A DNA stretch of 60,437 nucleotides, the filler included, from Sphacelaria rigidula (lineage: Eukaryota): assembly GCA_964200075.2 (NCBI GenBank). It is 5 parts of 5 records of this genome, joined end to end, with 100 filler letters (N's around TTAATTAATTAA, not from the genome) between each part and the next. Parts side by side here need not be neighbours in the genome. Positions count along the whole stretch, not along the records: positions 24,218 to 36,225 come from CAXNAA020004237.1; 4 more parts are not named here. One strand, 5' to 3'. Positions 1 to 49,073 of the stretch are shown one piece after another. The translations under genes and the position numbers were made by a program. The notes beneath the pieces were generated by a model. That model ran no database searches. It had not been told where the DNA came from and saw nothing but the letters and a program-made list of their open reading frames with translations. Every line of letters starts with the position of its first letter. Within the stretch, counting starts at the first letter, position 1.

Positions 1-77
1 GTTGTTTTATTTCATGTAGGTCGGCGCCGGGCACAGCGAAGGCGCGCGGCGGCCGGGGGACTGGGATGGGGGTGGGT

Positions 78-112
<35 letters not shown>

Positions 113-590: not shown

Positions 591-1468
591 GCAAATGGAA
601 ATGGACAGGGAGGGGGGGAGGGGGGGCAGCTCGCAGGACTCACGTTGGATACAGTCTCACCCGAAACAACTGGTGATAAAGACTGGTTGTGTATGTGAAA
701 CTCCAGCGCAAATTTCGCGTGAACCAGAGCATACAGCTGGCTACGCGGGTCGATTTGGTCCATGTCGACCCGGAATCGAGAAAGAAATATACACAAGAAA
801 CGATATGGAATTTTGATTCTACACACCTACGCCCTCACCGATAGCACTCTCGAACTTGCTGTCTTCATGGTAAGGTGTGGCAAACTCCTCGGATACTGCG
901 CAAGCGCACGATGAAGAAAAAAAAAAACAGAGGAAGCAAAGAGTTGGGACAAGAGGTGGCACATACAAATAAAAAAAACACGGCAACACACACGCGAAGA
1001 AGTTTAGCGAGCGTTTACCCGAAATCCTAGTAGTTGTAGACTACCAGAGGTGACCAGATCCGAAACTGGACTCGGAGAAAGGATGTACAGTGCGTTCAAA
1101 ACATTGGTACGAGTTGAACGTGAGTCAAAAAAATATCGACTCAATGTTACTAAAAACAACACCAAGTAGCCGATGTTTGTAGGCAACCTGGCGGTTTTTT
1201 GCGATTTCAGACGGGTCCAGGCCATGACTAAAACTTGTGCAGGCGACGACCTAACACGATTACTTACACTCATGCTCTTTCTCATTCGTTGAATTTGGAG
1301 TACGTTCACCGGTTCACCTGACCAATATCTACGCACACTGAACCACCCCCTGCAGCTAATGCAGCGATTGGCGAAGGAATTCATGATTTGCGGCTAGCGT
1401 GTTCAGTATCTATTTGCGGTCGGATGAGAGGGGGAGGGGGAGGGGGAGGGGGGTTCCTCCCGGAATAC

Positions 1469-12009: not shown

Positions 12010-12109
12010 NNNNNNNNNNNNNNNNNNNNNNNNNNNNNNNNNNNNNNNNNNNNTTAATTAATTAANNNNNNNNNNNNNNNNNNNNNNNNNNNNNNNNNNN
12101 NNNNNNNNN
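12010..12109. other. Artificial contig-joining spacer (N44-TTAATTAATTAA-N44)
   Basis: 100-bp N spacer with a 12-mer giving stops in all six frames; identical spacers recur three more times. Confidence 0.98.
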
Positions 12110-16192: not shown

Positions 16193-17199
16193 CTTGTAAT
16201 TATCTCAGTAATGAATAAGATTTTTGTGCATACCTATTCTTCAATTATTCTCTCGGGGTTCGAGAGGACCTGAACATTCGAGGAGAGGTGCAATCCGGCA
16301 ATTGAACGGCCATAGTCAGAGGACCTTCATTGCTATTGTTTCCGCGGAGAAGGGTGGACTTTTTTTCGGAAATATGTGAGTCAAATAATGGACGTGACTG
16401 TGAGAGAAAAAAAAATGAGAACTTCGGTAGTGATGGTCTTCAAATTGTCGATTCGCACATCTTGCCAATTTTTCGGATCTTAACTCGCAAACTTCGAGCG
16501 AAATATTGAGGGGGAAACTTTCCAAGTCAAGCAGTTGGACCGGCCTGAAGTCTTTATCCGGAATGGAAGCAAACACGGCATGGGCAACAGAACGCAGCGC
16601 AAAGGCAGAGTTCGGCAGTCGTGCACCCACCCGAGAGAGGGCGTCGCAGCTTCTTACAAGGTACCCGAGCAATCTCCATGCCACACTACTGCTTGTTGTG
16701 CTAGAACACGAAATGCGGCCTGATGGCAGCCGTTATGGGGCATTTTTGGTGCGGCGCTACAATACCCAAAAAGTATTTCCTCAGATTCGAATCGTTAGGA
16801 ACCCTCTCCCATATAACACGACTTGCGAAATATGTGAGAGCAAGCCACGATTGAACATCCCGATGGACGAAGGATATCCCGAATGTGCTTCAAAACGGGA
16901 ATGTCCTGACCATTACTCCTGTGTACGAGCCGCTCCTAACTTTGGAGGTCCCTGAATGAGAAAGATCTAGACCCAAGAAGTGTGCAACCCTTTCCGCAGC
17001 ATGACTCTTTGCCAGCAAAATACGTATGCCCGATTTCTTCTTGTTCAATCGTCCTGAAAAACATGGCAGGCGCGTCGCTGACAACAAAAGAAGGCGAGCG
17101 TTTTCCCACCGTACGGCAACAGTCCCTTTTTCGACCCCTCCCACCTCGTTGCCGTCCAACGCTCATAGCCAAAAGCATCGAAATGGGGGGGCTATGTTC

Positions 17200-17455
17200 C
17201 ACGGTTCGGACGAATCATTGCAGGTTCGAATAACCAAACCCCCGATTCCTCAGGCCTGATCGCTCGAAAGAGATAAAGTCGACCGCTGGTCAAACAGGTC
17301 TCCACGTAACGTTTGCGCCGTTCCACGTGCCTGGGCTGCGCGTAGTTGGCTTGCAACGCTGGAAACAAAGCCTAAGGATTGATTCGTACGGTACGAATCA
17401 AGTGGACTAAAATCAAGTTATTTCCAGACGAATCATCAGTTCGTCCGACCCTTGT
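17200..17455 (+). mobile_element. About 250-bp MITE family (TCGGACGAA termini)
   Basis: Copies at 24218-24320 (partial), 54295-54555 (reverse) and 56265-56535 (reverse); ends ttcggacgaatcat / ttcgtccgacc. Confidence 0.7.
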
Positions 17456-17959
17456 AATGTTCGATGAGAGTACTAGTGTAAAATGATACGTATGCCCTAT
17501 TTGGAAACGTGCAAGCCATGCAATGGTTTTGTCACTTCTCGACTCGACTATCAGAAGATACTGAAAATGAGGGTGAAATTGAGAGTGGAGGAAGCAAATC
17601 GATGATTCGGAGCTTTCGGCTATGCAACCTGTGTTTTTGGAAGTTGTAGAAGCGTGCATGAATCCATCGACTTCAGTTCAATTAGACCAAATTCTTCCAG
17701 GTTTGACAACCTCGACAACGTTGCTAATGCCTTCGAATGGTGGCTTCATTCTGTCTTGTCGAAATATTTCGTGTCCTGTTTTCCTACCTCGAGTGAGACA
17801 TCGTGGAACACGAAACCGTAATGGGAGAAACATTAGGTAAACAGTACACAAACACTGCGCTGAGGTTCCACTTTCCCCACTACTATATATAGAGTAAACT
17901 CAACGTACTATCCTATACAGAGCACGACAGAAGCACCAGCAGGTCTCCATCACACCCAT

Positions 17960-18478
17960 TTCCCCCGTGGGATCGGGTTGGCAACGGCGCTGTTAAGCAC
18001 GCCACTCACTGCGTGAGCTAGGCAACCAGGTTGCCGGTGTTTTTTTGCGCGCTTGCGTTTTCTTGCCGCTACCATGATGATGGTCGAGCTATTGAAGATC
18101 AGATTGTGCGGGGTGGAGAAACCTCAATTCCGCGCCAAGGGGATGATCATATTGCGTAGTGTTTGCATGGTGAGACCCATGAGGCAGTGTATAACCCATG
18201 GCTGTCTCTGGAAGTGGCGATGCCCGAAAATGAAGCAACTCATTGGAGGCTGCCATTCATCTCTAAATATAGTCAGTAGGCTTCGGGCCGAACAATCTTA
18301 GGAGGATGTAACCAACCCTTCATGCGACTCGCCGAACACATCACGACGCTCCGCGCTTGGTGATTAATTGCGAGCCTTGGCCGGCGAAAACCGGGCGTGC
18401 GCCGACCTGGCTCTGTAGGGATGCGAGGTCAATGGTCAGATGACTACGTCATGCAAGATCATGAGTACACCGTCCCCC
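17960..18478 (+). mobile_element. Family A retroelement 3' fragment
   Basis: Ends GGGATGCGAGGTCAATGGTCA..ATCATGAGTACACCGTCCCCC; C-rich sequence also at the 5' junction. Confidence 0.75.
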
Positions 18479-19621
18479 ATCTCTAGTCCGATATGGAGCG
18501 GGCGACCCTGTGGTCATTTCCATCTCGGACTCCGGGTGGGCTTTTGCTGCCGATGCTGTGCCAGCGGTTGAAGGTCTCTTACCGCAACAACACTTCGAGG
18601 ACCAGTGTTGTTGTCGTGAAGCGTTTCTGCGACAACCAAGAGTTCCCCCACGGCTCTCGCATTGGTACGCGTGAAAAGTTGCTCAGTGCGTTCGCCCGAT
18701 ACTCCACGAAATGCCGAAATAATGTGGAAAATATGAAGCCCAAACTTCCAACGCTATATATACATTGCGTAGATAGCAAAATACAAACATCGTTCACTCA
18801 GTCCATCTCTGTCTGAGAACACACAGAAGCAAGTTGTGAGAGGTTCTTACTTTGCCTGTGAGGAGGGCATGCTTGTCTTCGTCGTTTTGAGGATCTAGGA
18901 TTTCTCGTACAACTCACCAAGTATGCTGATCACTATTCAATTTCAACTACAGTACAGCTGGCTCCATCAAGGTACGTACGAGTGCCGATGCTTACATTTC
19001 ACCAGGCTCTGGGTCGTCGTAATGTGCATCGGCACAGTTATATTCACGCTACAACTTCAGTACAAGGTAGCACATAGTAATGATTCCCAGCAGCTACTAC
19101 ACCACTTAGTGTATTACAATAAGTATTCTAGTCCACGTGCCATACGCACTACTGAATACCCTCCTGGTTGCTACGCCTGTTTCAGCCCACAGGGCATCGG
19201 CTTTCCCAAAAGCTACACAGCTATACCCGCTAGAGAGGGTCAATCCACATCACACCAGCGCATCCGCCATTTTGTCCACGTTTCCTCTTTCACCAGGAAC
19301 GTCCCTCCAGGGGCAGCGACTACTTAATTCAGAAGGCCCTGGAATCCAGGACGACCTGACGTACTTGTAGATGGATATACCCGCATCATAAAACAACATA
19401 TCCGTATCGTGCCGCTCCACGGAAGAAATCTTGGAGTCAAGAAAAGTGTTCTTGTCGCGGGGCAGGCCGCTTCGGCCTATTCCTCCATTGTCAGCAAAGC
19501 ACGCGCAGGAACTCTTACTCTAAACGATCTATGAAACACTCTTAGACAGGCAAAAAATTTTCCTCAGTAAACAGGGATGGGCGCCAAAAGATGTCCAACC
19601 GACGGATAATCTAATTTGTAA

Positions 19622-22666: not shown

Positions 22667-23569
22667 CTGGATTGTTTTGTGACACCGGGAGGGGAAAAGT
22701 ACGATCACTGATATCATTGCAGAAAAAACGAACAATTGAAGACCGACATGCGTATGTCCTCGGAGATGACTGACCCGAAGAATTCGACTTCTTCTGGATG
22801 ATGACCTACTCCGTACGAAACTAACTAATGACGAAATCTACTTTAAAAGAGGAGATATGACAGCTTTGCCGCGGTGGAGCCATAGACTAAGAACTCTATT
22901 CGCAGTGGACCCATGAACTAAGTACCCTATTCGACATGATCCGTAGGGTATAAAGGACATCATGTATGTCAATGCAGAGCCATGCAGCTCGAGCTTGGAA
23001 AAATGAACACGCCGTCCGGAACAAACGTTGTGGTATGTGTGTTCTCAGAGATGAGCACATTTCCACACTAAGAGTAGTTCACAAATAACATATGACAGCA
23101 TCTGCTTGAAAGCGGGGTACATACGTCGATTCCAAGCGCCTCCGGATACCCAGAGCGATGCATCTTGTTCCGGATAAGATACACGCGTTGGCTTGTTCAA
23201 GAAATAGTAATAGGCAGAAAGAAGACCATTCAACACAGAAAGTAAACAGCAAATAATAGCGATGGCGATGGGGAATACAGTAACGATTATATCAACGACA
23301 GAACGCTAACCGTAACTACAGCAATGATTGGCGAGGCTCAGACAACGGAAACACATTCGCCCCGTGCAAATCGCCGGTCTTTCTCTTTATATATATACGT
23401 ATCCGGCTTCACCGATGAGAACCTGCCTCACCCTAGTGTTAGTGCCATACGTTCTACGGAATCGCTTTCTGCAGTGTTTGTAAACATCGTCAATCATACT
23501 TGGGCCATGCTTCCGGGCAGCTTTTAACATCCTCGCACAAAACCAGTTCCCCCCTTCCCTCAATCTATC

Positions 23570-23688
23570 GTAGCTTGCTCCGGCGAAAACCCGGCGTGCA
23601 CCCTCTCGGCTTTGTAGGAATGCGAGGTCAACGGTCTTATTACAACGGCATACACGGTCATGAGTACACCCCCCCCCCCCCCCCCCCC
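23570..23688 (+). mobile_element. Short family A 3' fragment with poly-C tract
   Basis: ..GGTCATGAGTACA followed by about 20 C; C-rich sequence upstream at 23549-23558. Confidence 0.7.
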
Positions 23689-24117: not shown

Positions 24118-24217
24118 NNNNNNNNNNNNNNNNNNNNNNNNNNNNNNNNNNNNNNNNNNNNTTAATTAATTAANNNNNNNNNNNNNNNNNNNNNNNNNNN
24201 NNNNNNNNNNNNNNNNN
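24118..24217. other. Artificial contig-joining spacer
   Basis: Same 100-bp N44-TTAATTAATTAA-N44 structure. Confidence 0.98.
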
Positions 24218-24319
24218 GCAACGCTGAAAACAAAGCCTAGGGATTGATTCGTACGAGTCGAATTAGTCATACTAAAACCAAGTAATTTCTAGACGAATCA
24301 TCATTTCTCCGACCCTTGC

Positions 24320-24707
24320 AGTTTTTCCCGCGTTCTTTCCCGCGTTTTTTCTGCGGATACCATGATGTTGGTCGAGTTAGATCACGTTGTGGGGGGGTGG
24401 AGGACCCGAAGTCCGCGTAAATGGGGTGATCGTACTACGCAGTGTTCAAGTTGTCTCCATGAGGCAGTGTAACCCGTGGCTGTCTCTGGAAGTGGCGATA
24501 CCACAAAATCAAGCAAATACTTGGAGGCTGTCATCCATATGCAAGATGAGTAGTGCGCTTCAGGCCGAACATATCACAGCGTCTCGCGCTCGGTGATTGC
24601 GAGCCTGATTCGTCGAATACCCGGCGTACTCCGTCCCGGCTTTGTAAGATCAATAGTCTTGTCACTACGGCATGCAAGATTATGAGTACCCCTCACGCCC
24701 TCCCCCC
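24320..24707 (+). mobile_element. Family A retroelement 3' fragment
   Basis: Ends CATGCAAGATTATGAGTACCCCTCACGCCCTCCCCCC. Confidence 0.75.
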
Positions 24708-24960
24708 AGTAGCGATAAAATGATGGTCATACTAGGAGATAGATGGTGGCCACAGACGGCGAAACGGGACGGGGATAAGATATGTAGACGGTTTTTGTGC
24801 AATGTATGGAAGAAACGTAATGAGCGCCGAAACGTTGGAGGTGTCTCTACTAGGAGTAGGAACGGTGCTCCGTCTCGAAAGGGATGCGTGGTCAATGGTC
24901 AAACGACTAGCGCGAGTAACAAATGAGAACCCCTCGCCACCGACCCCCCTCCTCCTCCAC
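24708..24960 (+). mobile_element. Family B LINE 3' end
   Basis: ILGDRWWPQTAK..GAPSRKGCVVNGQ; second copy at 26160-26565 carries the CCHC knuckle; ends AAATGAGAACCCC then a C-rich tract. Confidence 0.75.
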
Positions 24961-25032
24961 CAGAAAAAAGCCTATCCGTTGACTGTCCCTGCCGTCCCTC
25001 TCCTTTTACTTGCGCGCCGTCCTTTTCGTAAG

Positions 25033-25190
25033 GTGGCGTTGTCGATCGATCCTAACAATGCCTCGGCAGCTCTCGCGCTGGTTCATGGTCACGAAATACG
25101 TGGAGAGCACAGGCTGGCTTTGAAAGAGGCGGAAGCTTTTCTCAGTGGAAACCCTGAAAGAGGCGTTGGCAAAAGGGGCCCCAAGAACCG
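25033..25190 (+). CDS. Isolated internal exon, TPR-like (resembles TTC38-type repeat)
   Basis: Pyrimidine tract, TAAG|GTG acceptor and CG|GTACGT donor; VALSIDPNNASAALALVHGHEIRGEHRLALKEAEAFL. Confidence 0.55.
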
Positions 25191-25639
25191 GTACGTCGTA
25201 TGTTGTGTGATTTGTCATGCCGTGGTTCTCATGTTGTGGTTCTCTTGTTCTGTCGACAAGTAATGCAGTATCAACATCCAAGGACACACACTGAGGGAAA
25301 ACGAGGGCACCGGCGACGCAGATACCAACTATGCCCAAGAAAAATACAGTGTGGCACCAACTACAGAGCCGTAGATGATTGCACACTCCATAAGAGCTGC
25401 TGTTCGCAGCAATCACCAGCTTTATACCCCTCTATCTGCAACAAGCGACACATGACACACGACACATGTTTCAAATTTCGCCCAACTGTCTGCTCTAGTG
25501 TTGTGGTTCCCATATTGCGGCTCTCGTTCTGTACTTCACCTGTATAGAATGGCATTTTTCAGGAAGATTTTTGTTTTCCCATGGGCTTGCTCGTCCACGT
25601 GTGAACCCATCGAATCTTGGTTTGTCTTCGGAGAAAGGG

Positions 25640-26158
25640 GGAAGGAGAGGTATACTCATGATCTTGCATGCCGTAGTCATCTCACCGCGGACCTTGCGTC
25701 CCTACAAAGCCGGGACGGAGCACGCCGGGTTTTCGCCTGACCAGGCTCGCAATCAATCACCGAGCGCGAAGCACCGTCACGTGTTCGGTGAGTCACATGA
25801 AGGGTGAGCTGCATCCTGCTAAGATGGTTAGGCCCGAAGCGTACTAAGCATCTTGCATATTGATGACCGCCTCCAATGAGTTGCTTCATTTTCTGGCATC
25901 GCCAATTTCTACAGACAGCCACGGGTTCCACACTGTCACGTGGGTGTCTGACCATTTGAACACTACGTAGTATGGCCATCCACGTTGCGCGGAATTGAGG
26001 TTCTCCCACAATGCACAACATGGCCTAGCTCGACCAGCATCATGGCTACCGCAAACGAAAAACGCGAACGCAAAAAACACGCGGGGACATGGTTGCCTAG
26101 CTTACACAGTAAGTGGCGTGTTATAGAGCGTCGCTGCCAATCGACGCCAACCTCGTGC
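25640..26158 (-). mobile_element. Family A retroelement fragment inserted in the C-tail of a family B copy
   Basis: Minus strand ends CATGAGTATACCTCTCCTTCCCCC; its 5' end abuts the G/C-rich tract at 26159-26187. Confidence 0.75.
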
Positions 26159-26159
26159 G

Positions 26160-26565
26160 GGGTGGAGGGAGTGGAGGGGAGGGGGGGTGCCAATTTGTTG
26201 CTTGCCTTGGTCGTTCGACCATTGACCACGCATCCCTTTCGAGACGAAGCACCGTTCCTACTCCTAATAGAGACAACTCTAACATTTTTTTCGGCGCTTA
26301 TCACGTTTCTTCCATACACTGTACAAAAACAGTTTCATATATCTCATCCCCCCTCCCTGTCTCGCCGTCTGTGGCCATTATTTATCTCCTAGTATAGCCA
26401 TCGTCTACCCGCTCACTGTCCAATGTATCAAACGGTTTCATGCCACCTTCGTTTATTTCCCACGCTTCCCCCTCTAGCACGTCCTGCTCCTCGTCGTATA
26501 GTCCACATGCCGCCACTGTATGAGTTCTACTCTCTACTACATTGCCACAGGGGCACTTTTGCACG
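26160..26565 (-). mobile_element. Family B LINE 3' end with CCHC zinc knuckle
   Basis: CPCGNVVESRTHTVAAC (C-x-C-x8-H-x4-C), typical of the C-terminus of APE-type LINE ORF2; frameshifted. Confidence 0.8.
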
Positions 26566-28051
26566 GTCAGGACAAATCAAGATTCATACGAGTTGACTCC
26601 CGATGAACGTTCGAGGACAAGTCGTGGACGTTTGGGTCATCCGTAAAGTCACGGGGGTATGAAATTGTATACTCAAGGTCATGCACGAGTAACGAGCTGG
26701 ACATCTCTCCTCGACTGCGTGGTGTAATGCGACCGAGAATTGGAAAGCATATACGGGTCATGTTTCATGTACGCGTGATGACAGATTGAAAAAACGTACT
26801 CCTTCTACACCCCGCATGAAGCAAAGGGTGGGTTACATGTATCCATTCAGTGGCGTTTATCGAAGGGTGAGTCATATTCATCCCTACCTTCATCTCACAC
26901 GCACCGAAGGGGGACAATCTTCATGACTTTGTCATCGCATCTGTCATCTCGCACGACTCAAAGAGTAACTATTGTGTACCCAGGAGTCATCCGGCATACA
27001 CTCTGAGGGGAAATAATCATAGTGATAGTAACATACTCACGATGGCAAGCGCGCATAGTCACGCGCCCACGACTCTCGCGGTGCGGATAGTCCATCTGAA
27101 TTACTCATAGATGAGTCATGAATCACGGGTGGGGAGCGAGAACTAGTCGCCGCCCACGGCGGGACCGGGGGATTCGTTTCGTGTGAAGAGCGAGAAGTCA
27201 CTACACGCATGGCGCATATTCCAAAACAAAAACACACCTCAAGCCGCACAACCGGGAGGACGATACTAGTTCGCGTGCCCCACCCCCCCCCATCCCTTCC
27301 CCCGCAATCTTTGAATGTTTCATGATCTCGTACACGACGAGGTATCCCAGGGTACCCCTATAAGTTGTAATATTTCCCTCTAAACCTTGAGCTGTGGTTC
27401 ATAATTTCGACCACCGTGAGACGTACCCCCTGTACATCTGTTCTTTCATCGAGGCGACCCCGATTATCGTTGCTACGCGACGTGATGCGATCTCCATTCA
27501 AGTGAAAACGAGCTCCCACCATTCACAGTGAACGAAAAAGCAGTACACCAACGTATATTCATGTGTACACTTACCGGTGAATATCAATGGAAGATCCGAA
27601 ATATCGAGTCACTGAACCGTCGACGAATCGCTCATCGTAATCCAGAGTTCACGCACGTAATCACCGTCCACTTCATCTTCCATCTCACCCCAGTTCATTC
27701 ATCAACAGCTTCAGACCTTCGCCAGAAGAAAAAAGAGCTCTTCCCTCTTCACGGTGATGATGATATAATATTTATAGTGCAGAAACATTCAGGAATCGGT
27801 GCGGGATTTGGGAAAAGGCTTCCCCCGCTGCCTCTTGCCTCAAGATACGCACGAATATGATCAACTATCATGGCGTGGCAGCTGCAAACCCTTCCTCACT
27901 AAACACCACTCCCGAGCCGTCGACGGAATTGTCATTGTCCTCCAACAGCAGCAGCCCAACAACGAGGGATATTGAGACCGCTCTAACTGCGTCAATCTCG
28001 CTTACGAACAGCAAACAAATGGGCATCCCGCTCATCCCGGTGGCTATCTAT

Positions 28052-31000
28052 CTATCCGTCAGCCCCGTGACCGTCTCCTTTCTCGTATCCCCTCTGCTCG
28101 ACGATGAAGTCGTCGACATCGCTTTCATCATCCCCCTCTTCGGGCCCCGAGAGCGCCAGCAAGCTCTCCGAGGGGTTGCTCAGCCGCTCAGGCACGGCGG
28201 CCAACGCTTGAGCGTCCGACAGCATCGGTACCTCTTTGGGGATGCTGTCGTAGCTTCCGTTGAGAAACAGTACCATTTCGTTCTGCGCGGCATCCAAGCG
28301 GTTGCGGCACCCGGTGGTCAGTCGACCGGCGGTGCTGAAGTCGCGCTCCAAGACGGCCGCGGATGCCGGGATTGACAGCAGCACTCGGGCTGCGCGCGCC
28401 ATGAGCGGGTAGAGACGTGAGCCATCCGAGGACCAGTAGCGGAGCATGCCCTCGATGGGCTTCGTCTCCAGGGTCTCCTCACGTCCAGCAAGCACAAACG
28501 GATCAAATTCCTCCGCGCACAGCTGTCGTTGTGTCTTCGGTGCCGATCCCACTGCTCTGCCCCTGACGATGTTCCCGAACATGCCGCTTTCAAATAAGCG
28601 CGCGGCCCCCTTTGATGCTGCCTTCGACGGGGTACTTGAGCGGCCCCGCCCCCCGCTGGGGCGCTTTTCCTTCTAGGGCCGAGCATCGTTCGCGTTGGCA
28701 CCACTGGCCCTGGGGCTCCCCACTGTAGTGGACTCGCTTGATTCGCCCTCTTCTGCCATCTTCGTCATAAGGTCAACGATCTTATCCCTAACAACCGCCC
28801 GTAAGCGGACAGCCATCTCCTTGCTCTTGCAGATGGAAAGAAGGAAGTTTAGTTCGGCGAAGAATGGATTCATGCAGGTTGCCATCTCGAGGAGGAAGTC
28901 GGGTTTGGCGCCCGGGGCATCCAAGTCGTAACGCTTGAAGAAGCGCTTGTCGACCGCCGCGGCCGGCAACTTCTTGGTCTTCTTCGTCACATCCTGAAGA
29001 GCCGTCTCCTCGCGCAAGAAGGGTTGAGCCGTCTCGGTGCGAACCTCGACGGCGGCAGTCACGTGTCGCTTGGGAGTCAGAATGCGGAGGGGCTTGCCTT
29101 CCTTTAACAGAAACACTCTGACGGGCACGAGGTCGAGGAGCGTCTGGACCCCTGTCGGCACCTTGGTGCTCTGAGTTTCCTTTATCAAAATCGCAATGGG
29201 CTTCACTAAGGAATATAGCTCCTCGATGCTCGACTTTGAGGCGGACAGGGGGAAGGCCACTGACTCATTTTCCGAGTAGTGGACCTCCAGTGCCCACCAG
29301 TTCGAGAGCACTGCTTGGAGCACGCTGCACGTCGATATCCACCGCTGAGGCACCGCATTCACTAGCTTGTTGCTCTTGCCGTAGAGCATTGCCTGAACGT
29401 CTTCGAATTTGACCTGTATGTTTTTGAGGTGAGGGGAGGGGGGGGCAGCGAGGGGGGGGGGGGGGGGGGGGTCGTTTTTTTTATTATTTTTTTCTTTTCT
29501 CTTTATTNNNNNNNNNNGGGGGGGGGGGGGGGGGGGGGGGGGGTGGGGGGGGGGGGGGGGGGGTGGGGGGGCAGGCACTTGTGCGTCTATCATGCTCCGC
29601 ATTTTTACCGAAATAAAGTATTCCTGTTTATACTGACCAACCAAGCGCCAACAGCGGACTGTGTCGGCAAAAATATGAGGAATATCGCGAATGATGAAAC
29701 GCAATCGTCCATGTGTACAGCATGGGCATGTACTTCCTCTGTGTCAGAAGTCTGTGCAGCTATGTTTGTATGAGCCCTCAATGAAGTCCGATTTGATTTT
29801 CGATTTTTTGGCTGCATTCGTTGGCGTGTTTTGAGCGAAAAACAACACTCTTTCTGCAAGATGGGTGCTTGACCCGTGCAGACTCGCGACCGAGAAAAAG
29901 TGAGCCGGTCAAAATTTGGGCATTTTTCGCTTTTTTTCCCAGTGAAGCACAGCAGAGCCGGAAATCGCGACGAATCGTGAAAAAATGTGAAAACCGCAAA
30001 ACCACCACTGATTTGGATATCTCCGTGACGTTAGCATACGCACGCCCCATTTGACAATTTTTCAGGATGTGATCGTTAGTGCTCGATGTAAGAACGTCCA
30101 CAACTGGTCAACATTGGGGTATAAGAGGACCAAAAAAGACCAGAATGGGGTATATTTAGACCTAAAAATAGTACTGGAAACAAGCTTTTTTTCTCTCTCT
30201 TTTTTTTGTAGTCATTCTGTCTGCGCGTTATCTCTCCAACGAACCCAACTACGGGATGATCGTCAGCGTTGAAATACCCAAACAATCAAACGTCCATAAC
30301 TGCAGACTCATGACACAGAGGAAGCTCACCGCCAGCAACTCGTTTTGTCGAGATATCAATACCAACGAAACAAGGACATCTTTCCACTCTTGCCAAATTC
30401 AAACCTCCTGAAGCGCTCACCGCCGAGATTCATTAGCAGCTCAACAATTTCATGACGAACATTATGGAATCTGCAAAAATGCCAGCAAAATGCCGGCTGC
30501 CAAAGACGAGATCATATACAAATAAAGCTCCCATTCTTCAGCAAATTCGCACACGACCAACAACGTGCCCACCTTCGAGTTGGCAGACTTATTCAGGTGC
30601 TCGACCACCTTTTTCACGGCGTCGATGACCTCCCGGGCTTCGTTGTTCTTGTTGGATGCCTTGGAAGCATTCGTTCCAAAAGCCTGTCAAGGAAAACACG
30701 GGGTGGATATCCAGTTATGGGGTCACTCATTGAAGACGCATGCACATTTGCATGGTGCCCATATCATCAGTATAGTGTAGACTTCTTGTCCACCATAAAC
30801 ATTGAATGTGAAGACAACAACAACAACAACATAAAGGCGTTTCATGACTGGTATGAATGATATACGCTCACCGCATATTCCCAAAAATATGTCGCGAACA
30901 CGAAATGAATAACATTAGTGATACTGTTTCCGCCATAGCTCCCCCACCGCCCTCCCGAAACCACCCCAAAGGCGTTACGAAGCAAATGGTCCTACAGCGC

Positions 31001-36124: not shown

Positions 36125-36225
36125 GGAGGGGTGTACTCATGATCATGCCTGCCATAGTCATCAGACCATTGACCTCGCATCCCTACAAAGCCGGGACGGA
36201 GCACGCCGGGTTTTCGCCGGACCAG
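36125..36225 (-). mobile_element. Family A 3' end, cut by contig end
   Basis: Minus strand ..GATCATGAGTACACCCCTCC. Confidence 0.75.
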
Positions 36226-36325
36226 NNNNNNNNNNNNNNNNNNNNNNNNNNNNNNNNNNNNNNNNNNNNTTAATTAATTAANNNNNNNNNNNNNNNNNNN
36301 NNNNNNNNNNNNNNNNNNNNNNNNN
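36226..36325. other. Artificial contig-joining spacer
   Basis: Same 100-bp N44-TTAATTAATTAA-N44 structure. Confidence 0.98.
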
Positions 36326-38559: not shown

Positions 38560-38836
38560 AGAGCCGGAATTTGGGCTGAAAAGTGGCAAGACTCCTCATG
38601 ACCGACTCCTCATGACCGACCAACCCGTAAGTCACCTAATATTGAGTACATGTGTTTTCTTGGAATGTGGAGCGGACACGAGTATCTTCAAATTCCCAAT
38701 GTGATGAGCGGTGGCAAGCGAAAGAGCGTAAAAAAATCGACAAGTACGAAGAAAATACAAAATCAATAGTTCAGACGCTAACTACTACTCGAGGTATATG
38801 GCATGCACGACCATGAGTACACCCCCCCCTCCCCCA
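38560..38836 (+). mobile_element. Possible third family (C) with the shared ATGAGTACAC+C-tract terminus
   Basis: GGCATGCACGACCATGAGTACACCCCCCCCTCCCCC at 38800-38835; upstream body unlike A or B; 5' boundary uncertain. Confidence 0.4.
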
Positions 38837-38971
38837 CATCAGGTGGGTAACTCCCCTTAAATGAAGCCTCCTCTATTTAGGGTTGAGCATGGGATTGGTT
38901 TAATTCACGTAGAAGTTCGCATGATCTTTATTTATTTTTTGGGGGGGAGGAAGGGGGGAGGGGGGGGGGGT

Positions 38972-39583
38972 CTACGAGCTGGGCCAGCTAAGAGTAGGTG
39001 TAAATCTCGCTCAGGCGACGCACGGCGCGATATTAGGAGTTGGACGCTGAATTTTCGACACCAGCTTTTTATGATCGAAGCGCAGAAGATCACGGGACCA
39101 GCAAAGAAAAAAAGAAGAAAAAAAGAAGTTATGAGCCTTCAAAATTTCGGGAAAAACCAGATAATGTCAATGTCACAAGTCCAGGAAGAAAAGGAGAATC
39201 TGCAGCTGGACACGGGAAGAATCAGTTCCTTGAGTGCAGAAGGTCTTCCTGAAATTTCAGCTCAAGAGTCGTCGAATTGGGCCGTGCGTTCAACATATTC
39301 CGTGAGGCTGCTGCAGCCCTATAAATCAAGTGATGGGAGACTTCAAATACGGAGGTCATGAGTTCGAGTCCTCACAGATTCTCTTTGTTCTTCTTCTGTC
39401 GTTAAGGTCATACATTATGCAGTACATTTTTTTTCATATATTGTTTTCGTCCAGCGGCGGTGCCGTGTGTCACCAGGTTGGTCTACACTTCACAATGATA
39501 TGCTTACATTGGGTTAACTCGGGAAACTGGGGAAGCTGTGGTGTGAGCAAGTGTTGCAGCTCTCAAGCTGGCCCAGCTCGTAG
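38972..39583. mobile_element. About 610-bp MITE with perfect 18-bp TIRs related to the CACTA-like terminus
   Basis: CTACGAGCTGGGCCAGCT at 38972-38989 and its exact reverse complement at 39566-39583. Confidence 0.8.
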
Positions 39584-42490
39584 TATGAGTGCCCCCCCTC
39601 ACCAGAGGTCCGAGATAAAAAATGTTGGAACGTGGAGCTCGCGTGGGGGTAGAAAAAAATCGTGCACCCCAGGTTTTATGTTATATATCGGTGATATGCG
39701 TGTCTTGTCTTTCGTATGAACCAACCATAGCATCGTCAGCACCTCTGGTAGGGAGGTATCATCAGGATATTATCTGCACCCCATACTCGTACTGTATATA
39801 GTTCACCTAACTGATGGGGCAGAGGAAGTATGGTATAGAATAATAGATCTTAGACTCATGTATGCATATATCGAATCGACGCGGTGAAGGAGACCGGAAG
39901 TATTTCGCTCAGCAAGGCAAAAAAAGGTCGTCGGTGCTGTTTATTCTGCACTACTGTCTGTTGTTGTAGACTAAGACTACGATACGTATATCCTGCAGTT
40001 ACACGCGAAGGCTAGAGAGAGGCGCTTCTCCCAAGCTCAAAATATGCCCATCCAGCAACATGGTTTTCGAGGGGGTCACATGTTGACATCGACGCAGCAT
40101 ATCCTTCCCGCATACTGTTGTACTGTACCGGACGGTAGTCACTTGTTGTACTGTTTTCTGTACTACTACAGTTGTACTGTACTGTGATATGATTTCTTAG
40201 CGGCTCGCAGTAGCGTTGTAATACGGTGTGCCCTACATACCGCACTATTCTGGACAGACAGATGTTGCTGCTGCCGATGCTGCTGCTACCACTGCTGCTG
40301 CTGCTGATGATGATGATGATTCTTCTTCTGATTCAGCTGGTACTCTTGCTGGGAGTGGGTTGGCCAGGTGTTGTTGGTGAGCGACGTTGGTGGGTGTGTT
40401 CCGGATTGTGTTCGTGCCCGCGGGCTCGCAGTGCGGGCTATTTGAAGTCTGAGAATAGAACAAAAACAAATAATGTAGAATGTTCCAGGAAGTTTCATTT
40501 ATGGAATAATTCGGCGTACGGGGCATCCGATACCATGAATCTTAAATCCAGGCCGGTTGATTGGTTCGGCTGGGTCCTATCTTTGGTAACGAGCACAGAT
40601 ACTCATCCTTCCTTCGATTTACCTGTATGCGTGTGTTGCATCACCCTGTCGCGCCGGCCGCGGGCGCCGAAGTAGTAGTAGTAAGCATCAGTTTAAAATC
40701 GCAAGGTTGGTGACCTGGGTCTTACAGAAAGTCATGTTCGCCGTGAAGATGTGTTCCCGGTTCAAAACAAGTGATGGCGGTGGCATTAAATGGTTTAGTT
40801 CAACCACGACAGCGGAGTCACCATGTACACCTGTACAAAAAGCGGAGTAACTTAGTTTTTGTACTTCGCCCGAGATGCAGACATTCTCCCTACAGAGGTT
40901 CGTACAGACAACCGTACAACAGCACAATAGTGTCTTGAACTCGAGGTTCCCGACATATTTCGCAGGATCGTCTGTGAGATAAATCGGGAACCTCAATTCG
41001 AAACCTCAAATGATATTCGCCGAAACTCAAATCAAGATGAAAGGGGGGTTATGCCTGTATGTACGCTGTGCGTCCCGAAGCATCGTGCATAGCTAATCGT
41101 ACAGAAGCATTCTCTAATCTGGACGAAAAATGCTCTTGACAAGACTGGAACTGGTAGTTGTGGGGACAGTGTTCTTCAACAAGGGTTTCAAGAAACATGT
41201 TAACGATACGAGACCATCAGTTATACGGGGCCCTTTCTTTACCGTGCTGGCAGACCGCAACGCCTACTGACTCCACTGTCCAATCCATTACCCCGAGCAA
41301 GTGTATCATCTTTGACGGACGCATGGGTGCTGGATGATCATCACGGGGTATTCTGCTGACGCTACCCTTCAACACGCAGTAATACCCCGCGAGAGACTCT
41401 ACCCTTTGTGTCAGGTTCACCGTTTTTTTTCATGAGTTATGGGGTATACTACTGACTGTACTCAGAGTGACTGCCATCTGCAGTAGGAGCATGGGTTTTG
41501 ATTGATGATGGGGTATCAGGTACTGTATCGGGTAGTGGAGTAGTGGAGTAGTGGATAATCGGACCATGCATGAACCGATGTCAGATGTCCCGCATCGACT
41601 CAACCGGCAAATCTAGGTTACGCCGCATTTTTGGGAAATGACAAAAAAGCCCCCATATTCTCAATCTGCCCACGCGCGGTGTGCTCTCTTCAGCGCTCAC
41701 GCCTCCAAGGTTTGTCCAAATAGGACGGGGCAGCCCAAACATCAAGATAGGTGACGATACAATGCCGATCTGTGGAGTGCCTTGCAGGTGAAGATTGGGA
41801 TAATGGTTTGTCATAGTGTGTCAATTTCGCCATTTCCGCCCCCTAACAACAGCATACTGCCGTAGTAGCGGCTGTGCCAACAATCAGTCCCACAGCCGAC
41901 CGTATACACTCGGGCTGAATCCACCACGACGATCAGGGGCTGTGTGTAAATATTTTCTCTGCCAAGGATTGACGGCCACCAGGCCGGGCTTTGTAATCAA
42001 CCCATGCCGCAGATTCTATTGCTTGACAAAATTGTGTTACATCACACATCAATACTTGAGCCCAGTAGTACTCCTGTCCCGTCCGTCAGTCTTGACATCT
42101 GTTGCACCTACTGCTCGACTAGTTGGCCATGTTGCAGTGTGCTGTACTGTTGTTTTTCCTGTCGTCTGTCCTGTTGTTTGAACTGACGGTCTAGACTCCA
42201 CAGCAGTTATCACATGCCCATTCTTGTGCTGTACAGGCCCTTCTCGACCAGCGGCCGTTCTTGGGGCCGCCCTACGCTTGTTCAGAACCCAAATTCGAAA
42301 GTGATCAAATTTTATTCGTCTACAACCGTATGGGGGTGAATGAAGGCCTCACCGACCAAAATCCGTCGTCAACAAGAAAAAATATGAACGCGGTGGGATA
42401 TTGAAGACGTGTTGAAGACGTCATTGACTCGTCTGACCTGTGCCGAACCTGTGCCGAATCTCTGCCGAACAGAACACACGCTCCATTCGA

Positions 42491-42789: not shown

Positions 42790-44478
42790 GCAGTGTTGTT
42801 TTTTTTCGATAATATGGAGGCTGTGTTTCGACGGTTAGGCGCCAAGAAAACCCGCACCTCGCTTGTCATGACGCCGAAACTTGGAGGATGCGTTGATTTG
42901 TACTGCAGTAAGGTGTCGGAGCCGCAGCCGTGGCTGCACAAGGCGCTGATGGCCCGATCTGCATTGAAACGATGGATGCCATTCTCATCAGATTCTGTGT
43001 TTTTTACTACCTCCTGTCTGATGACAAATATAGTATGTACAACTTTGGTCAGGCTCGCAGACCGCACGGATACTTCAGGCGTCATCGTCAATCTTCGCCC
43101 AGTTAGGGATGAACGCTCGCAGAAAACCAGAAAATAAACAGCATCTGGGCCCCACCATATAGATGAAGGTCTAGGCTAAACCTTCGGCGGTCCGAAAAGC
43201 CTCTCTCATGCGACCGCTGCGTTCTGCCATAGACCCTGCCCCACGTATCTGACAAGTTGGCAAAATCCCCGTACAGACAGGAGCAATGCTGGCGGATACA
43301 AAATCCTGAGAGTCTGGCAGCCGGCAAGGTAGTTATGGTAGTGTCCTTCTAGCGATATCAACTTACAGTGCACTCTTGCAGAGTTCACAGGTGAATATTT
43401 TGGCGATTGCCTCACCTGCAGTTCGCCCAGATGTAGTGGATTTTTCCACCATCTCACCGCGCCAGATTATATGTGAAAATGTATAAGATCCTGCATTATA
43501 TGTTGAAATGTCCCAGACCCTGGACGAAGATTCTACAGTCAGTACGACCAAGGTGTTAGAAGTGTACTCTGCACAGTATAAAATATATTGCCGACCATAA
43601 TTTGTGTAGTACTCGTACCTCAAGTCGGTAACTGCAACGCTACACTTCGAGACAACTACAGTGTTTAAAAATCTTCAGGGTATGAAATGCTACAGGCGGC
43701 TTTCGCGCCATAGCGGCTGTATTATCATACAGCTTTGTCTAAGATATAGGCAGCCATGACAGCAGCAGAAACGGCCATTCACTCCTGCGTGCGCAATCTG
43801 GGGCAAACGCACGCTGTAGCTGCAACACGGACAGCTTTACAAATGATATCCCGCGTACACGTCGACCGCAGATACAAGCGGTTGCGTTCATGATGTGGCG
43901 AACTGCATAGGACGGCGCGAAATCAATGCAGCACAGGGATAGGCTAAGGATGTGACGTTCTGTGGTGTGCTTTGTCACCCTGCACCCGGCCGCTGTGCAG
44001 TGAGCAGGTAGTGTCGCCGATGGCGTAACGCCGCGGTTGGTACGCAGTGTCAAACACATGGCAGCAAACAGCATATTTGATGTACAACAGACGAGGATGT
44101 GTGTCTCAAGGCCAATGCGCACAGAGTGGGACCTGCATCTAGAGAACCCTGCACCAACTCGCCCTGTTCTAGCGGATACATGAACCTTTTCAGCAAAAAA
44201 CGCTTGCAACGTGTGCTGTAACGAATGTTACGCGTCATGCAGCTTTCTCCCATACATAGCATCGCCCATAAAGCGAGCTGTCAGAGCGAACAGTGCCCAA
44301 CCCTCTTACCACGATGACCCCCTGTCTGAGCTCGAGATAATTGAAACTGTGGAACATGACTTCAACTAGTAGAAAGTACACCTCACCGTGATAAAAGCTT
44401 CCACATTATCGAAAAGGAACAACACTAGTAATAGGGTAGTAACCGTCTTGCTGCCCTATCTGCTGCTTACGCTCGACG

Positions 44479-47400
44479 ATGATGACGGCACTGAATCCTG
44501 ATGCGGCGGAATATTCCCCAACGACTAAATATGCCTCGGCTACACAGCCCGCGGCAGCGGCACCAGGTAACCGTCGCCGAAAGCGTGGGATACGTAGCAA
44601 GGAGAGTAGATCTGCTAGGTATCTACACGTGTGTAAGCACAAGGAACGATGTGGTGGTGGAACCGTCGAGGCATGTCGGGACTGCTGCCCCCGAAACCAT
44701 GTCTGCTAACAAGCACGCACGGAGCAGTGTCCATTTCAGAACAGAAATAAAATACTTGCATGGAAAGAGATGGAAGAGAAGAAAAAACACGCCGCACGAA
44801 GAAAGAGGCGTAGGAGACGAGCAGCTTGGAGGGCTGCCGATAAGAGGAAAACGACTGCGAAGGCGAGGGCCAGGATCGGCGAGCTTACTGCCGGTACCTA
44901 CATTGTTCGCACGCTCGCCTTCAAAGGTGCGAACGGCATTGGCCACAGTGAAATGGTCCTGAAACCATGTCAGAGTCTGGGATGCGATATCGTAGGGTCG
45001 CAAGAAACCAGGAGAAATGGTCAATCGGTGTTCATTGCGGCGGGATTCACGGTATTTTGTTGTGGTGGCACAAGCGGGGCTAAGGGAAGGGCAGGACAAC
45101 ATGGGTAGGGATCACTATCACGGAGTCAATCCTGGAGATGGGAGGAAAAGGTTCAACAGTCGAGTACCTCAGTGCTCGACTTATGAAGGTGAAACTTGAA
45201 CTACACGGCAAATCCAACCCAGTATCATTTATAGTTAGGTATGCCCCGACGGCGACCGCTCTGCTGCGCGATAAGAACAAGTTTGGGGATGACGTATCCG
45301 ATTTTGTCTCACAAGTACCTGGCAAGGAAAATCTATCCGTCATGATGGATGCCAACGCCCGCACTGGAAAACAAGGAGAGGGGGGTGGAGAGAATGATAG
45401 CAAGATACTTGGCGAATACGGGCGGGACGTACTGAACAATAACGGTGAGAGGCTACTGTCCTTCACAGAGGAGCAACGTCTTACTGTGCTCAATACGTTC
45501 TTCAGAACACTCAAGTGGGGCATCTCGTGCACTTCTCAAGCTCCAACGCTGGGAAGGGACGCTGTCGCCTTGACTACATCCTCACAAGACAGACGGACCG
45601 AAAACTCGTACGCAACATTTCCGTCCGCCGTCCACCACCCGGAAAACGCGAGTCTGACCATAACCTCGTATCTGCAAAAGTCCGGCTCCGTGGGCGCTTC
45701 GCGCCCAATCGCAAGATATGGAAACATGCATCAAGACGCAGAACGGCTGACCTCGAAAGGCTGATCGCTGACCCGACGTTGAGAGCAATGACGTTGCAAA
45801 CGGCCTTCCCTCTCGACCCCTTGCCTATAGATGCTACCGCCGCTGACATGGCTGCAGGCCTCACCAAGACGCTGATATCCGCCCCAGCAGACACCGCGCC
45901 CCACGAGAGAAACCAACGAGGCTCCCACGGCTGGTGCGCGAGTGTCGAGGCCAAGGCAAAGATCTACACTCCATGGATGGCGAAGGAAAAAGCACGGAGG
46001 GCATCGATGTCAACGCCCACTGGCACCAACCTAAAAAAACCTTGAAGAAGCCTAACAAGGAACTTTGTCGTGTTAGAGCACATGTGGTGGAGAGATTCTT
46101 CGAGACCTACGTCAGCCGACTTGAAGCGCACATGGCGAGAGGTGACCAACGCGATTTCTACAGGCATCTGAAGGAAATCGATGTCGAAGGGAGGAAACCA
46201 TGTAGCCCACAGCAGCAATATATCCGCGACAACAAGGGTCAAATGCTCAGAGACGTGAAGGTCATCCGCCCGCAGTGGGTACACTGGTTTCACATCCTCC
46301 TCAACACCAAGTCGCCCCGCCCCGCCTCAACCCAGTAATCATCGACCAACTCCAGGCGCGGCTTCTGAGCACGTTGCTACACGAGGTGCCTACGATAGAC
46401 GAGACAGCGGATGCCATACGATCTATGTCCAACGGAAAAGCCGTTGACCCAGATGAACTGCCGGCTGAACTGCTGAAGATACTCCTCGACGGCGACGACA
46501 CTAGCCGACTACAGAGATTCCATGCTATCAGTGTTGATATCTGGGGCGGAACAGCCGTACCACCACAATGGACGGATGCTACCATCATCGTGCTCCACAC
46601 AAAGGGCGATCGGACGGAATGCGGAAATTACAGGGGAATTTCACTCGTGTCATACGCCGGCAGAGTGCTCCTCAAGATAATCGCCCGCCACCTAAGCACC
46701 TATTGCGAGGACAATGGAAATCTGCCTAAAGAGCAGTGCGGCTTCCACCCCGGACGCTCAACCCTCGACATGATGTTCACCGTCCGATGACTCCAGGAAC
46801 TTGGCCGGAGACGACAGATCTCGCTCTACATATGTTTCGTCGACCTCACGAAAGCAGACGATTCTATCGACCGCCCATTGCTGTGGAAACTTCTGGAACG
46901 CTTTGGCGTCCCACCCATCATGCTCTCGATTATTCGCCAATTCCACGATGGTATGCAAGCTCGGGTGCGCACGAATGACGGAGAATACTCGGAATGGTTC
47001 GACATCGACCAGGGCCTCCGACAGGGATGCGCCCTAGCACCACTGCTCTTCAACATTTTGTTGACGGCAGTACTCACGGCGGCCCTGGCAACCTCCCGTG
47101 ATGTACCTAACATCTCGGGGGACCCGGTGCGAGTCCGAAAGCGCGAAAAGGGAGATTTCCAACAGGAATGTGCGGTAGCATCGGTCGAGCCAGACGTGGC
47201 CACAGCAATCGCGGCGGAAGAGGTGCGGTCCTTATGGAGTATGCTGTACGCCGATGACGCCTGCATCATCCCGCGGACATCATCGAGCTTCGAGAAGATG
47301 ATGAAGGGGATTGTGACGATCTGCGGAGAGTTCGGGTTGACCGTGTCGGTAGCAAAGACGAAGACCATGCGACTGCACTCACAGGCGGGGGCACCTCGAA

Positions 47401-48260
47401 ATCAACGCGGTTGGCCAGGTATACAAACAAACAGACAGCTTTGTATACCTGGGGAAATTACGGAAAGCGGCGACCTCTCGGTGGAAATCAAAAAGCGCGT
47501 ACAGCGGGCATGGTCGAGCTACCACCAGTACAAAGTCCGACTGTACAATCGAACGAACGCGGCCGTCTACCTCTCAAGGTCCGCATAATCAAAGCCGAGG
47601 CTGTTGAAGCGCTTTTGTACGGGTGCGTCACGTAGACCCCTCTCAAAGGTCGCAACAATCTACTGCGCACGGCCCACCATGCGTTGCTCAGGCGCTGCCT
47701 TGGATGGCACAAGCGCAATCGCACATACCACGTTCTGTCATACCGAGAGACCCTCGCGAGAACAGGGTGCGAAAGCGTCGAGACGACGGTGAGGAAGAGG
47801 AAACTCCATTTCGCCGGTTTCGTCATGCGCATGTCACCCGGACGGATACCGAAACACGTCATGTTCGGTGAAGTTATAGCCGTGAAGAGACAAGAAAGAG
47901 AGTTCAGCGGCAGGCACAAGGACTGGATCCGCTGCCTATCGGAAGACATGAAGGCGTTCGGTATCGAATGGCAGGGGTGGTCTACCAGAGCCTTGAATGC
48001 AGTAGAGTGGCACAGCTGTGTTGAACAGGGGGCACAAAGGGTAATGGTGGACTGGTGCCAAAAAGATGACGCAGAGGCAGCGATACGGCATGCGAAAGCT
48101 GCAGGCCAAGATGCACCGACAGCACCTGGGACCGACAGTACCAACAGCAACTGATCATAGCCTACGCCAGATACGTAAAGCATTGCGTTTGGTTCCCATC
48201 TCTGATTTGTCCATCTTTTGTTCGTGGTGGTGTCTTGTCTGTTTTTGTTTCGTCTGTGTC
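44479..48260 (+). mobile_element. Near-full-length RTE-clade LINE (APE endonuclease + reverse transcriptase), inactivated by frameshifts and stops
   Basis: APE motifs QETRR, YAPT, DANARTG, NNGERLL, LDYIL, SDHNLV; RT motifs [43 protein letters not shown]-terminal RKRKLHFAGFVMR..RIPKHVMFG; T-rich tail. Confidence 0.93.
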
Positions 48261-48331
48261 GCTTCGACTCAGCACGAGCTAGCTCAACAAGAGTTTTTCT
48301 GTTTTGTCACTCAGGGAAACAGGGTGGGGCG

Positions 48332-48431
48332 NNNNNNNNNNNNNNNNNNNNNNNNNNNNNNNNNNNNNNNNNNNNTTAATTAATTAANNNNNNNNNNNNN
48401 NNNNNNNNNNNNNNNNNNNNNNNNNNNNNNN
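48332..48431. other. Artificial contig-joining spacer
   Basis: Same 100-bp N44-TTAATTAATTAA-N44 structure. Confidence 0.98.
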
Positions 48432-48697: not shown

Positions 48698-48977
48698 GTG
48701 GTACGACCTTCTGAACGAAGATGAGGTCTACGACCGCGACAACATCTTGGGGGAGATTGAGCTTACGGTGCAGTGGTACAGCGATCCCAGCGCAGGCGAA
48801 CTGGCCAAATGGCAGCAGGGCTGGTTCGAAGCCCTCCGGCGCAAGATAAGTAAGAGCTGTTTGTGGATCACCGCAAAAATAGTGGTTCCATGTTGACCTG
48901 TAAGTATGCACCATCATATCAAAGTGAGTCGACGAACCTCCACGACGGACTGCCGAAGTGTTGATCGATCGATTGAT

Positions 48978-49073
<96 letters not shown>

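Follow-up and report, generated by a model that had tools for sequence, protein, structure and literature searches.

Two families of retroelements, here called A and B, were analysed in a stretch of DNA of 60,437 nucleotides (nt) from the genome assembly of Sphacelaria rigidula (referred to below as the window). It is well supported that they form a pair of a long interspersed nuclear element (LINE; family B) and a unit resembling a short interspersed nuclear element (SINE; family A) which both carry a homopolymer-C tail. The observation that the families are C-tailed and nested in each other, already made in a preliminary description of this sequence, was confirmed. The elements probably prefer C-tracts as sites of insertion, though this is not proven; the specificity of the endonuclease for oligo(dC)/(dG), proposed in the same description, is a property that we infer. 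The DNA of the window is eukaryotic and rich in repeats; it consists of five pieces, each of about 12.0 kb, which had been joined artificially, so that every end at the edge of a piece is an artificial cut.

By self-comparison of the window and by alignment seven copies of family A and two copies of family B were identified. The earlier count of B could thus be retained, while that of A had to be raised from six by an additional copy of ~29 nt at 38793-38821. The copies, their tails and the tract adjoining A1 are the following:

112-584 (-): A1, full-length copy of family A (SINE-like), ~473 nt, defined by alignment, the 5' start being set by the common TTGGCA(A/G)CG anchor
44-111 (-): tail of A1, C34 and, beyond it, decayed C-rich sequence
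603-626 (-): C-rich tract C7TC7TCCCTGTCC, 18 nt upstream of the 5' end of A1
17967-18469 (+): A2, full-length copy of family A; its tail (18470-18484) is short, decayed and C-rich, its 5' flank (17951-17966) is C-rich
23570-23668 (+): A3, family A, 5'-truncated to the last ~100 nt, with a C-rich tract upstream (23549-23561)
23669-23688 (+): tail of A3, C20
24322-24689 (+): A4, family A; a repeat (24218-24321) resembling a miniature inverted-repeat transposable element (MITE) abuts its 5' side
24690-24707 (+): tail of A4, CCCTCACGCCCTCCCCCC
24708-24930 (+): B1, 5'-truncated LINE of 223 nt with the last 72 residues of the open reading frame (ORF); it begins directly after the tail of A4
24931-24961 (+): tail of B1, C-rich and decayed
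25630-25649 (-): tail of A5, CTCTCCTTCCCCCTTTCTCC
25650-26154 (-): A5, full-length copy of family A; it begins directly after the tail of B2
26155-26187 (-): tail of B2, C7TC4TCCACTCCCTCCACCCCGCAC
26188-26565 (-): B2, 5'-truncated LINE of 378 nt with the CCHC motif CPCG..H....C and frameshifts; its 5' flank is not C-rich
36126-36225 (-): A6, 3' end of family A, cut on its 5' side by a linker, with a short C-rich tail just below 36132
38793-38835 (+): A7, ~29 nt of the 3' end of family A (38793-38821) with C8TC5 as its tail and no C-richness in the 5' flank

A1, A2 and A5 share one start, G(A/T)GGG..., which stands 11-15 nt before TTGGCA(A/G)CG; it follows that a complete family A unit measures ~505 nt and that these three copies are full-length at the 5' side. 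Accordingly, when it was said earlier that 5'-truncation points abut C-rich DNA, this was right for the flanks, which are C-rich, but ~584 (-), 17967 and 26154 (-) are the shared full-length start and not truncations. The copies are otherwise truncated to a variable extent at the 5' side (lengths of ~29, ~99 and ~505 nt were found for A, and of 223 and 378 nt for B), while the 3' end is constant: all end with ATGAGTAC, and the terminus of each of the nine copies is (A/C)ATGAGTAC or a mutated form of it. The pairwise identity of 73-80% among the copies of the window indicates that they are old. Upstream of the terminus lies the 21-nt motif GGGATGCG(A/T)GGTCAATGGTCA at 18418, 24881, 26216 (-) and 36163 (-), and in a more degenerate form at 23617; these five matches, with at most three mismatches, have to be compared with none in 100 shuffled sequences. 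A sixth, degenerate copy of the motif is present in A1 at 143-159 (-). Since its start precedes ATGAG by 43 nt in A2 and by 42 nt in B1, the earlier statement that A and B have different bodies but the same 3' end, with the motif 42-43 nt before the terminus, proved to be correct.

Family A occurs alone, without B, at four places (A1, A2, A3 and A7) on three of the five pieces, which shows that it is not tied to B within one fixed element. The two families adjoin each other twice within 2 kb and in opposite orders, B1 following the tail of A4 immediately at 24708 and A5 following the tail of B2 immediately at ~26154 (-); both orders of nesting had been noted before.

The copies agree in what follows their 3' end. 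In 9/9 window copies this is a C-rich run and in none of them poly(A), as had been claimed; the run is C34 in A1, C20 in A3 and C8TC5 in A7, and it is decayed elsewhere. The same was seen in DNA independent of the window. All three copies of B that were recovered from metagenomes (see below) have a C-run after the end (GC8GCACC.., GC11GC5.. and GCCTC7TCCTCCC..). Contigs of four public sequencing runs from three studies (X1, X3, X4 and X6, the first three being DNA runs and X6 perhaps an RNA run) were also aligned, at 80% likeness, to positions 24218-27200. The number of contigs that fitted this region ranged from 7,132 to 101,445 per run, nearly all of them over its repeat parts; between 25018 and 25617, where the bins are single-copy, the depth was far below that of the repeat parts, although contig depth is not to be read as copy number. 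Past the 3' end of B (26193, read on the strand of the element) the consensus of these contigs read GAGTACG and then 18-23 C, the display being limited to 30 letters, in 673 (X1), 454 (X3), 695 (X4) and 102 (X6) contigs, with an agreement of 0.59-0.65. The C-run also continued at 24927 for B1 and, in X6, at 25649 for A. Such a consensus over hundreds of contigs, together with the metagenome copies, indicates that the (C)n arrives with each insertion. In one X4 contig the end of B1 and its decayed tail were unchanged while the single-copy flank differed at 24/577 places, from which it follows that the insertion of B1 is old and shared.

Tails of simple sequence are not confined to A and B in this genome. 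A third short family, with ~45 nt shared between its copies at 38941-39035 (-) and 39530-39598 (+), ends with ...AGCTGGCCCAGCTCGTAG, after which one copy continues with C11TC6TTCCTC7 and the other with TATGAGTG and C7; thus the ATGAGT(A/G)C terminus with a C-tail is found beyond the two families. A C-terminal LINE fragment on the minus strand (49484-50197; tblastn with P0095, E 5e-17) is followed by a T-rich 3' region and ends with a (TCAA)n tail of ~135 nt at 48961-49095, the whole feature extending over 48961-50197. Simple-repeat tails therefore exist in this genome, and that of B can be regarded as the case with a unit of one base. Among homopolymers of at least 10 nt in the window 22 are of C/G and 3 of A/T, and among those of at least 15 nt the numbers are 11 and 0. 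Four short assembly gaps (29508, 31222, 37422 and 51110) lie 1, 53, 45 and 7 nt, respectively, from long C/G runs.

Two repeats were noticed next to the copies of A and B. The MITE-like repeat, of ~270 nt, is present at 17197-17456 (+), 24218-24321 (+), 54295-54556 (-) and 56269-56534 (-) and has the terminal inverted repeats (G)GTCGGACGAATCAT... and ...ATGATTCGTCCGACC; its copy at 24218-24321 adjoins the 5' side of A4, and the summed contig depth over 24218-24317 was very high. A 15-nt inverted repeat (25612-25626 and 26571-26585; 93% complementary) is located just beyond both ends of the composite of B2 and A5, its right arm being the edge of a moderately repeated family which extends from 26562 to past 27200.

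The nature of family B was recognized with the help of sequences from other sources. When metagenome contigs were scanned with a 19-nt motif, 74 loci were obtained, of which three (L012, L020 and L054; two of the records are named 'marine metagenome') are true relatives matching B over 227-400 nt with 73-85% identity; the other 71/74 loci, sharing at most ~30 nt, were discarded as chance matches. The frame of L012 is open from the locus edge onwards; it covers the C-terminal half of a reverse transcriptase (RT) and the CCHC motif CPCG..H....C, enters the module shared with A (...GAPSRKGCVVNGQMTKASNK) and terminates with a TGA inside AAATGAGTAC. As the stop codon of the B-type ORF is thus placed inside the terminal ATGAGTAC (AAATGAGTAC in L012), the LINE has no 3' untranslated region (UTR). 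A protein search with the L012 ORF fragment gave the full-length P0001 (1360 aa, 87% identical) and P0002 (75%), the best five matches having 52-87% identity, and the closest named relatives of B in this search were proteins of Ectocarpus sp. Physarum, for which homopolymer tracts are reported (PMC4758236), had been considered as the source of the DNA and was set aside in view of these relatives. P0001 contains the domains Exo_endo_phos (170-392), Exo_endo_phos_2 (279-414) and RVT_1 (740-989, E 9.8e-31). In tblastn its residues 1289-1360 were aligned to 24708-24923 (B1) with 78% identity, and its residues 1241-1360 to 26561-26194 (B2), with frameshifts.

The apurinic/apyrimidinic endonuclease (APE) domain was seen in the relative P0001 and not in the window copies themselves, since B1 and B2 keep only the last 72 and 120 codons; RVT_1 was found also in the L012 ORF, which is continuous with B sequence. 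Judged by these alignments, the B copies are 5'-truncated insertions of what appears to be an autonomous APE-type LINE with a single long ORF comprising APE, RT and a C-terminal CCHC motif, in agreement with the earlier classification of the families as retroelements without long terminal repeats. Whole P0001 matched PDB sequences in RT regions only, L1 ORF2p (E 6.6e-21) and an R2 protein (E 8.8e-20) about equally well; its APE domain alone had no significant match among the PDB sequences, the best real candidate being an exodeoxyribonuclease (E 0.064). A scan of viral contigs with P0001 and with the motif yielded no match.

Family A is related to the LINE at its 3' end. No LINE protein matched A in tblastn; its last 55-79 nt can be aligned to B and L012 at 77-84% identity (e.g. 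59/77 and 46/55 identical positions), which is longer than the shared signal of ~50 nt supposed earlier. In A this module is off the frame of the LINE: there is a TAG just upstream in the frame of B and one extra base before ATGAGTAC. It is therefore the nucleotide sequence that has been conserved here, and not the protein. The comparison of the LINE copies points in the same direction. Over the 90 nt that precede the stop, L020 and L054 together differ from L012 at 9/180 positions and B1 and B2 together at 12/180, while in the 300 nt upstream of it the differences amount to 75/599 and 113/413, respectively; within the last 90 nt third codon positions are conserved equally to the other positions. 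A module which both families share and which is conserved in this way bears the mark of a cis-acting 3' signal common to a LINE and its non-autonomous passenger, and the idea of a shared signal at the 3' end was in this respect well founded, the module behaving as a signal at the nucleotide level. A small-RNA head was sought in A: ARAGORN detected no tRNA, and there was no Rfam match at the gathering score, nor, in 17900-18520, any at E values up to 1. Since A has no tRNA, 5S or 7SL head, we call it 'SINE-like'; on the evidence of its sequence it is a non-coding unit of ~505 nt which seems to have captured the last 55-79 nt of the LINE.

The part of the module shared with A encodes a peptide, ..GCVVNG.. 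or more generally ..(C/R/E)V(V/A)(N/Y/D)G.., which recurs in relatives of the LINE (P0001-P0003, P0006, P0007, P0009, P0014, P0015, P0017, P0018, P0028 and P0035; relatives' best local alignments are 35-43% identical), mostly 2-11 residues from the C-terminus and further in for P0014. This recurrence could reflect either a constraint at the RNA level that is read through by the ORF or a constraint on the protein.

In order to distinguish tail from target, the 5' sides of the copies have to be considered. Seven 5' junctions were readable (A1, A2, A3, A5, A7, B1 and B2); A4, whose 5' end adjoins the MITE-like repeat and is thus uninformative on the target, and A6, which is cut by the linker, were left out. 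Within 40 nt upstream, a 12-nt window with at least nine C was present at 4/7 junctions, compared with 2.15% of the positions of the window on both strands (binomial P ~7e-6), and A2, with eight C, is just under the threshold, so that 5/7 junctions are C-rich by eye. In the 40-nt flanks C made up a fraction of 0.43 on average, against a background of 0.25 (resampling P ~1e-5). The enrichment concerns C only and never G on the strand of the element, where the G fractions are 0.05-0.23. Two joints of a tail with an element exist in the window (24707/24708 and ~26154/26155), and at least two further ones were found in X6 contigs, one with the end of B, 24-27 nt of C-rich sequence and A from ~24458, the other with the end of B, C11 and the last ~40 nt of A. 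In A1 a decayed C-tract stands upstream, and a pure C34 and then a decayed C-rich stretch downstream; this layout, a single case, is what insertion into an older C-tract would leave. The asymmetry between the two sides, that is a 3' C-run in 9/9 and 3/3 copies and a 5' C-tract at 4-5/7 junctions, argues that the C-run is at least partly borne by the element and is not merely a split target.

The identities of the elements, the conserved module which they share, their C-tails, their heavy 5' truncation and the enrichment of their flanks were all observed, and starting from them we favour, with a probability of about 0.6, a chain of events that combines recognition of the module, priming of (C)n on a G-run, a preference for C-tracts and a tail renewed by slippage. 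The protein of the LINE would bind the 3' module of ~80 nt, and reverse transcription would start in the (C)n of the RNA, paired with a G-run exposed by a nick in the bottom strand, so that the pairing of C with G might be the counterpart of the pairing of the L1 poly(A) tail with a T-rich nick. The tail would not be added by poly(A) polymerase; its template is probably the C-run of the donor copy, into which transcription would read through, and slippage would restore it, as happens in LINEs whose tails are simple repeats. Family A could be mobilised in trans, like the SINEs which share the tail of a 'stringent' LINE. If (C)n serves for priming, insertions would favour existing C-tracts, older tails among them, and from such a preference C-rich 5' flanks as well as nesting of A after B and of B after A are to be expected. 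The pairing, the site of the nick and the origin of the tail are the steps of this chain that we infer.

Several results weigh against this reading. There were only seven junctions, whose coordinates were chosen post hoc, as were the 12-nt window and the threshold, and two of the four positive junctions (A5 and B1) are the tails of B and A themselves. Before A7 and B2 there is no C-tract, and by eye there is none upstream of either copy of the third family at 38941-39035 (-) and 39530-39598 (+). A tabulation of target-site duplications (TSDs), which the preliminary description had suggested, gave none for any of the nine copies, the longest shared words being of 4-7 nt or C-runs; the copies are old, and some LINEs make no TSDs. 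No empty site was found among the run contigs, which break at repeats. The consensus fold of the module is a weak stem-loop (-7.5 kcal/mol), none of its 14 pairs showing a compensatory change. Of the 22 long C/G runs, about 19 have no recognisable end of A or B before them and no common upstream sequence within the window; possible origins of these are target tracts, orphan tails and the tails of other families. The earlier claim that the elements target poly(C) tracts is thus supported only in part, by the C enrichment at 4/7 junctions, and weakened by A7, B2 and the lack of TSDs.

These points leave room for C-tailed elements without any target preference, each joint being the product of one event in which the reverse transcriptase completes or abandons one RNA and then continues on a second, at its C-tailed 3' end, as is known from the U6/L1 chimeras of mammals, and the other C-rich flanks being due to clustering in repeat-rich DNA. 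Such an origin would account for the structure of both composites, in which an upstream member with its 3' end and tail intact is followed by the downstream member after 0-3 nt, for the outer 5' junction of the composite of B2 and A5, which is not C-rich, for the lack of TSDs between the members, and for the further joints of the same build in X6 contigs. It fits poorly with the C-rich tracts before A1, A2 and A3, which have no recognisable 3' end of A or B in front of them, so that a chimera would need an unknown third partner, with the spacing between tract and element of 18 nt (A1) and ~9-13 nt (A3), and with a C enrichment at 4/7 junctions that is far over the background; on balance we regard it as unlikely.

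Still less probable, in our judgement, is that the elements are strictly site-specific, of the microsatellite-targeting kind, with the C-runs on both sides being pre-existing (C)n and the tail of the RNA only read-through of the target. Long C/G runs are indeed common and ~19 of 22 (at least 10 nt) are unattached to A or B, and A1 resembles a split tract, with its decayed C-tract upstream and C34 and a decayed stretch downstream. Against a split target stands the asymmetry described above, which includes the contig consensus on the 3' side and the lack of any tract before A7 and B2, and also the location of the pure long runs, which is the 3' side. Finally, that A and B have no separate mobility, as one composite or duplicated segment, or that the C-runs are artefacts of assembly or sequencing, might be suspected from the two A-B adjacencies within 2 kb and from the assembly gaps 1-53 nt from long C/G runs, but can practically be dismissed in view of the solitary A at four places on 3/5 pieces, the opposite order of the two A-B pairs, B running into the LINE ORF without A in independent metagenome contigs, and C-tails in independent assemblies (three metagenome contigs; four runs from three studies).

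The favoured chain of module recognition and priming in (C)n can be extended to a wider proposal, for which we would give slightly less than even odds. A LINE lineage of brown algae and related marine organisms may have established target-primed reverse transcription on homopolymer-C, with oligo(dG) at a nicked C/G tract as the primer on (C)n of the RNA, beside a module of ~80 nt that overlaps the end of the ORF, and with its passengers it may have replaced poly(A)-dependent retroposition and sowed long C/G tracts which serve as landing sites and break assemblies. A pair of elements with poly(C) tails would explain the excess of C/G homopolymers (22 vs 3) and the gaps beside the runs; DNA with such runs tends to fold into unusual structures (G-quadruplex and i-motif). 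Both the choice of RNA by a LINE and the priming of DNA synthesis depend centrally on the 3' tail, and the well-studied cases are poly(A) or short repeats. A natural pair of a LINE and a SINE-like element that is very abundant and has poly(C) tails, should it be substantiated, would be a clean case for comparison, having no origin by polyadenylation, a G-rich primer and a signal overlapping the end of the ORF.

The remaining features of the window are given for completeness:

12010-12109, 24118-24217, 36226-36325 and 48332-48431: four identical linkers of 100 nt, N44-TTAATTAATTAA-N44, with a spacing of ~12,108 nt
28052-28761 (-): remnant of a hAT-family transposase, with the C-terminal dimerisation domain (E 6.5e-12)
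44443-48331 (+): decayed LINE of another family with many frameshifts; its N-terminal part is APE-like, RVT_1 is present, and the C-terminal part best matches P0088
55395-55760 (+): open frame encoding a C2 domain (E 8e-10), the sole clear host-gene signal among frames of at least 120 aa

The linker cuts hit A6, the LINE at 44.4-48.3 kb and the repeat at 24218. This LINE is A-rich on the plus strand and its 3' UTR is severed by the linker; its RT fell into generic RT clusters of the Protein Atlas and nothing more specific.

Full-text literature searches, both general and directed at brown algae and Ectocarpus, with Repbase reports and subscription journals outside their coverage, brought up no LINE or SINE described as poly(C)-tailed or as specific for poly(C). 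The elements were compared with several better known systems. Waldo, Mino, Kibi and Koshi are microsatellite-specific LINEs of the R1 clade, and TRAS and SART are specific for telomeres. Our elements resemble them in belonging to an APE-type LINE and in that the simple sequence after the 3' end is also enriched at the 5' flank; unlike in the microsatellite-specific group, the repeat is present at 4-5/7 5' junctions only and its unit is a single base, this comparison being one of features. The LINE proteins of Ectocarpus sp. and of marine assemblies (P0001-P0004 and others), known here as proteins alone, have the same APE and RT architecture and ..GCVVNG.. near the C-terminus.

In the case of L1 and Alu, the poly(A) tail pairs with a T-rich nick, and Alu inserts into older A-tails. 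That system and ours have in common a homopolymer tail and, on the strand carrying it, an excess of the tail's base in the target flank; in both, new copies land in older tails and 5' truncation is heavy. The differences are the lack of TSDs and the use of C in place of A, no copy of A or B having an A-tail; with C in the tail, cellular polyadenylation cannot be its source.

'Stringent' LINEs share their 3' tails with SINEs, as in UnaL2 and UnaSINE1 of the eel or in CR1 and the Pol III SINE of the tortoise. The tail of the pair described here is a homopolymer of C, whereas theirs is a repeat of 3-8 nt; the module is located inside the ORF, and A is devoid of a tRNA, 5S or 7SL head. The general features of such tail-sharing pairs could be recognized in the Sphacelaria elements as well: A carries the last 55-79 nt of the LINE, conserved beyond the need of coding, and the same simple tail is found on both partners.

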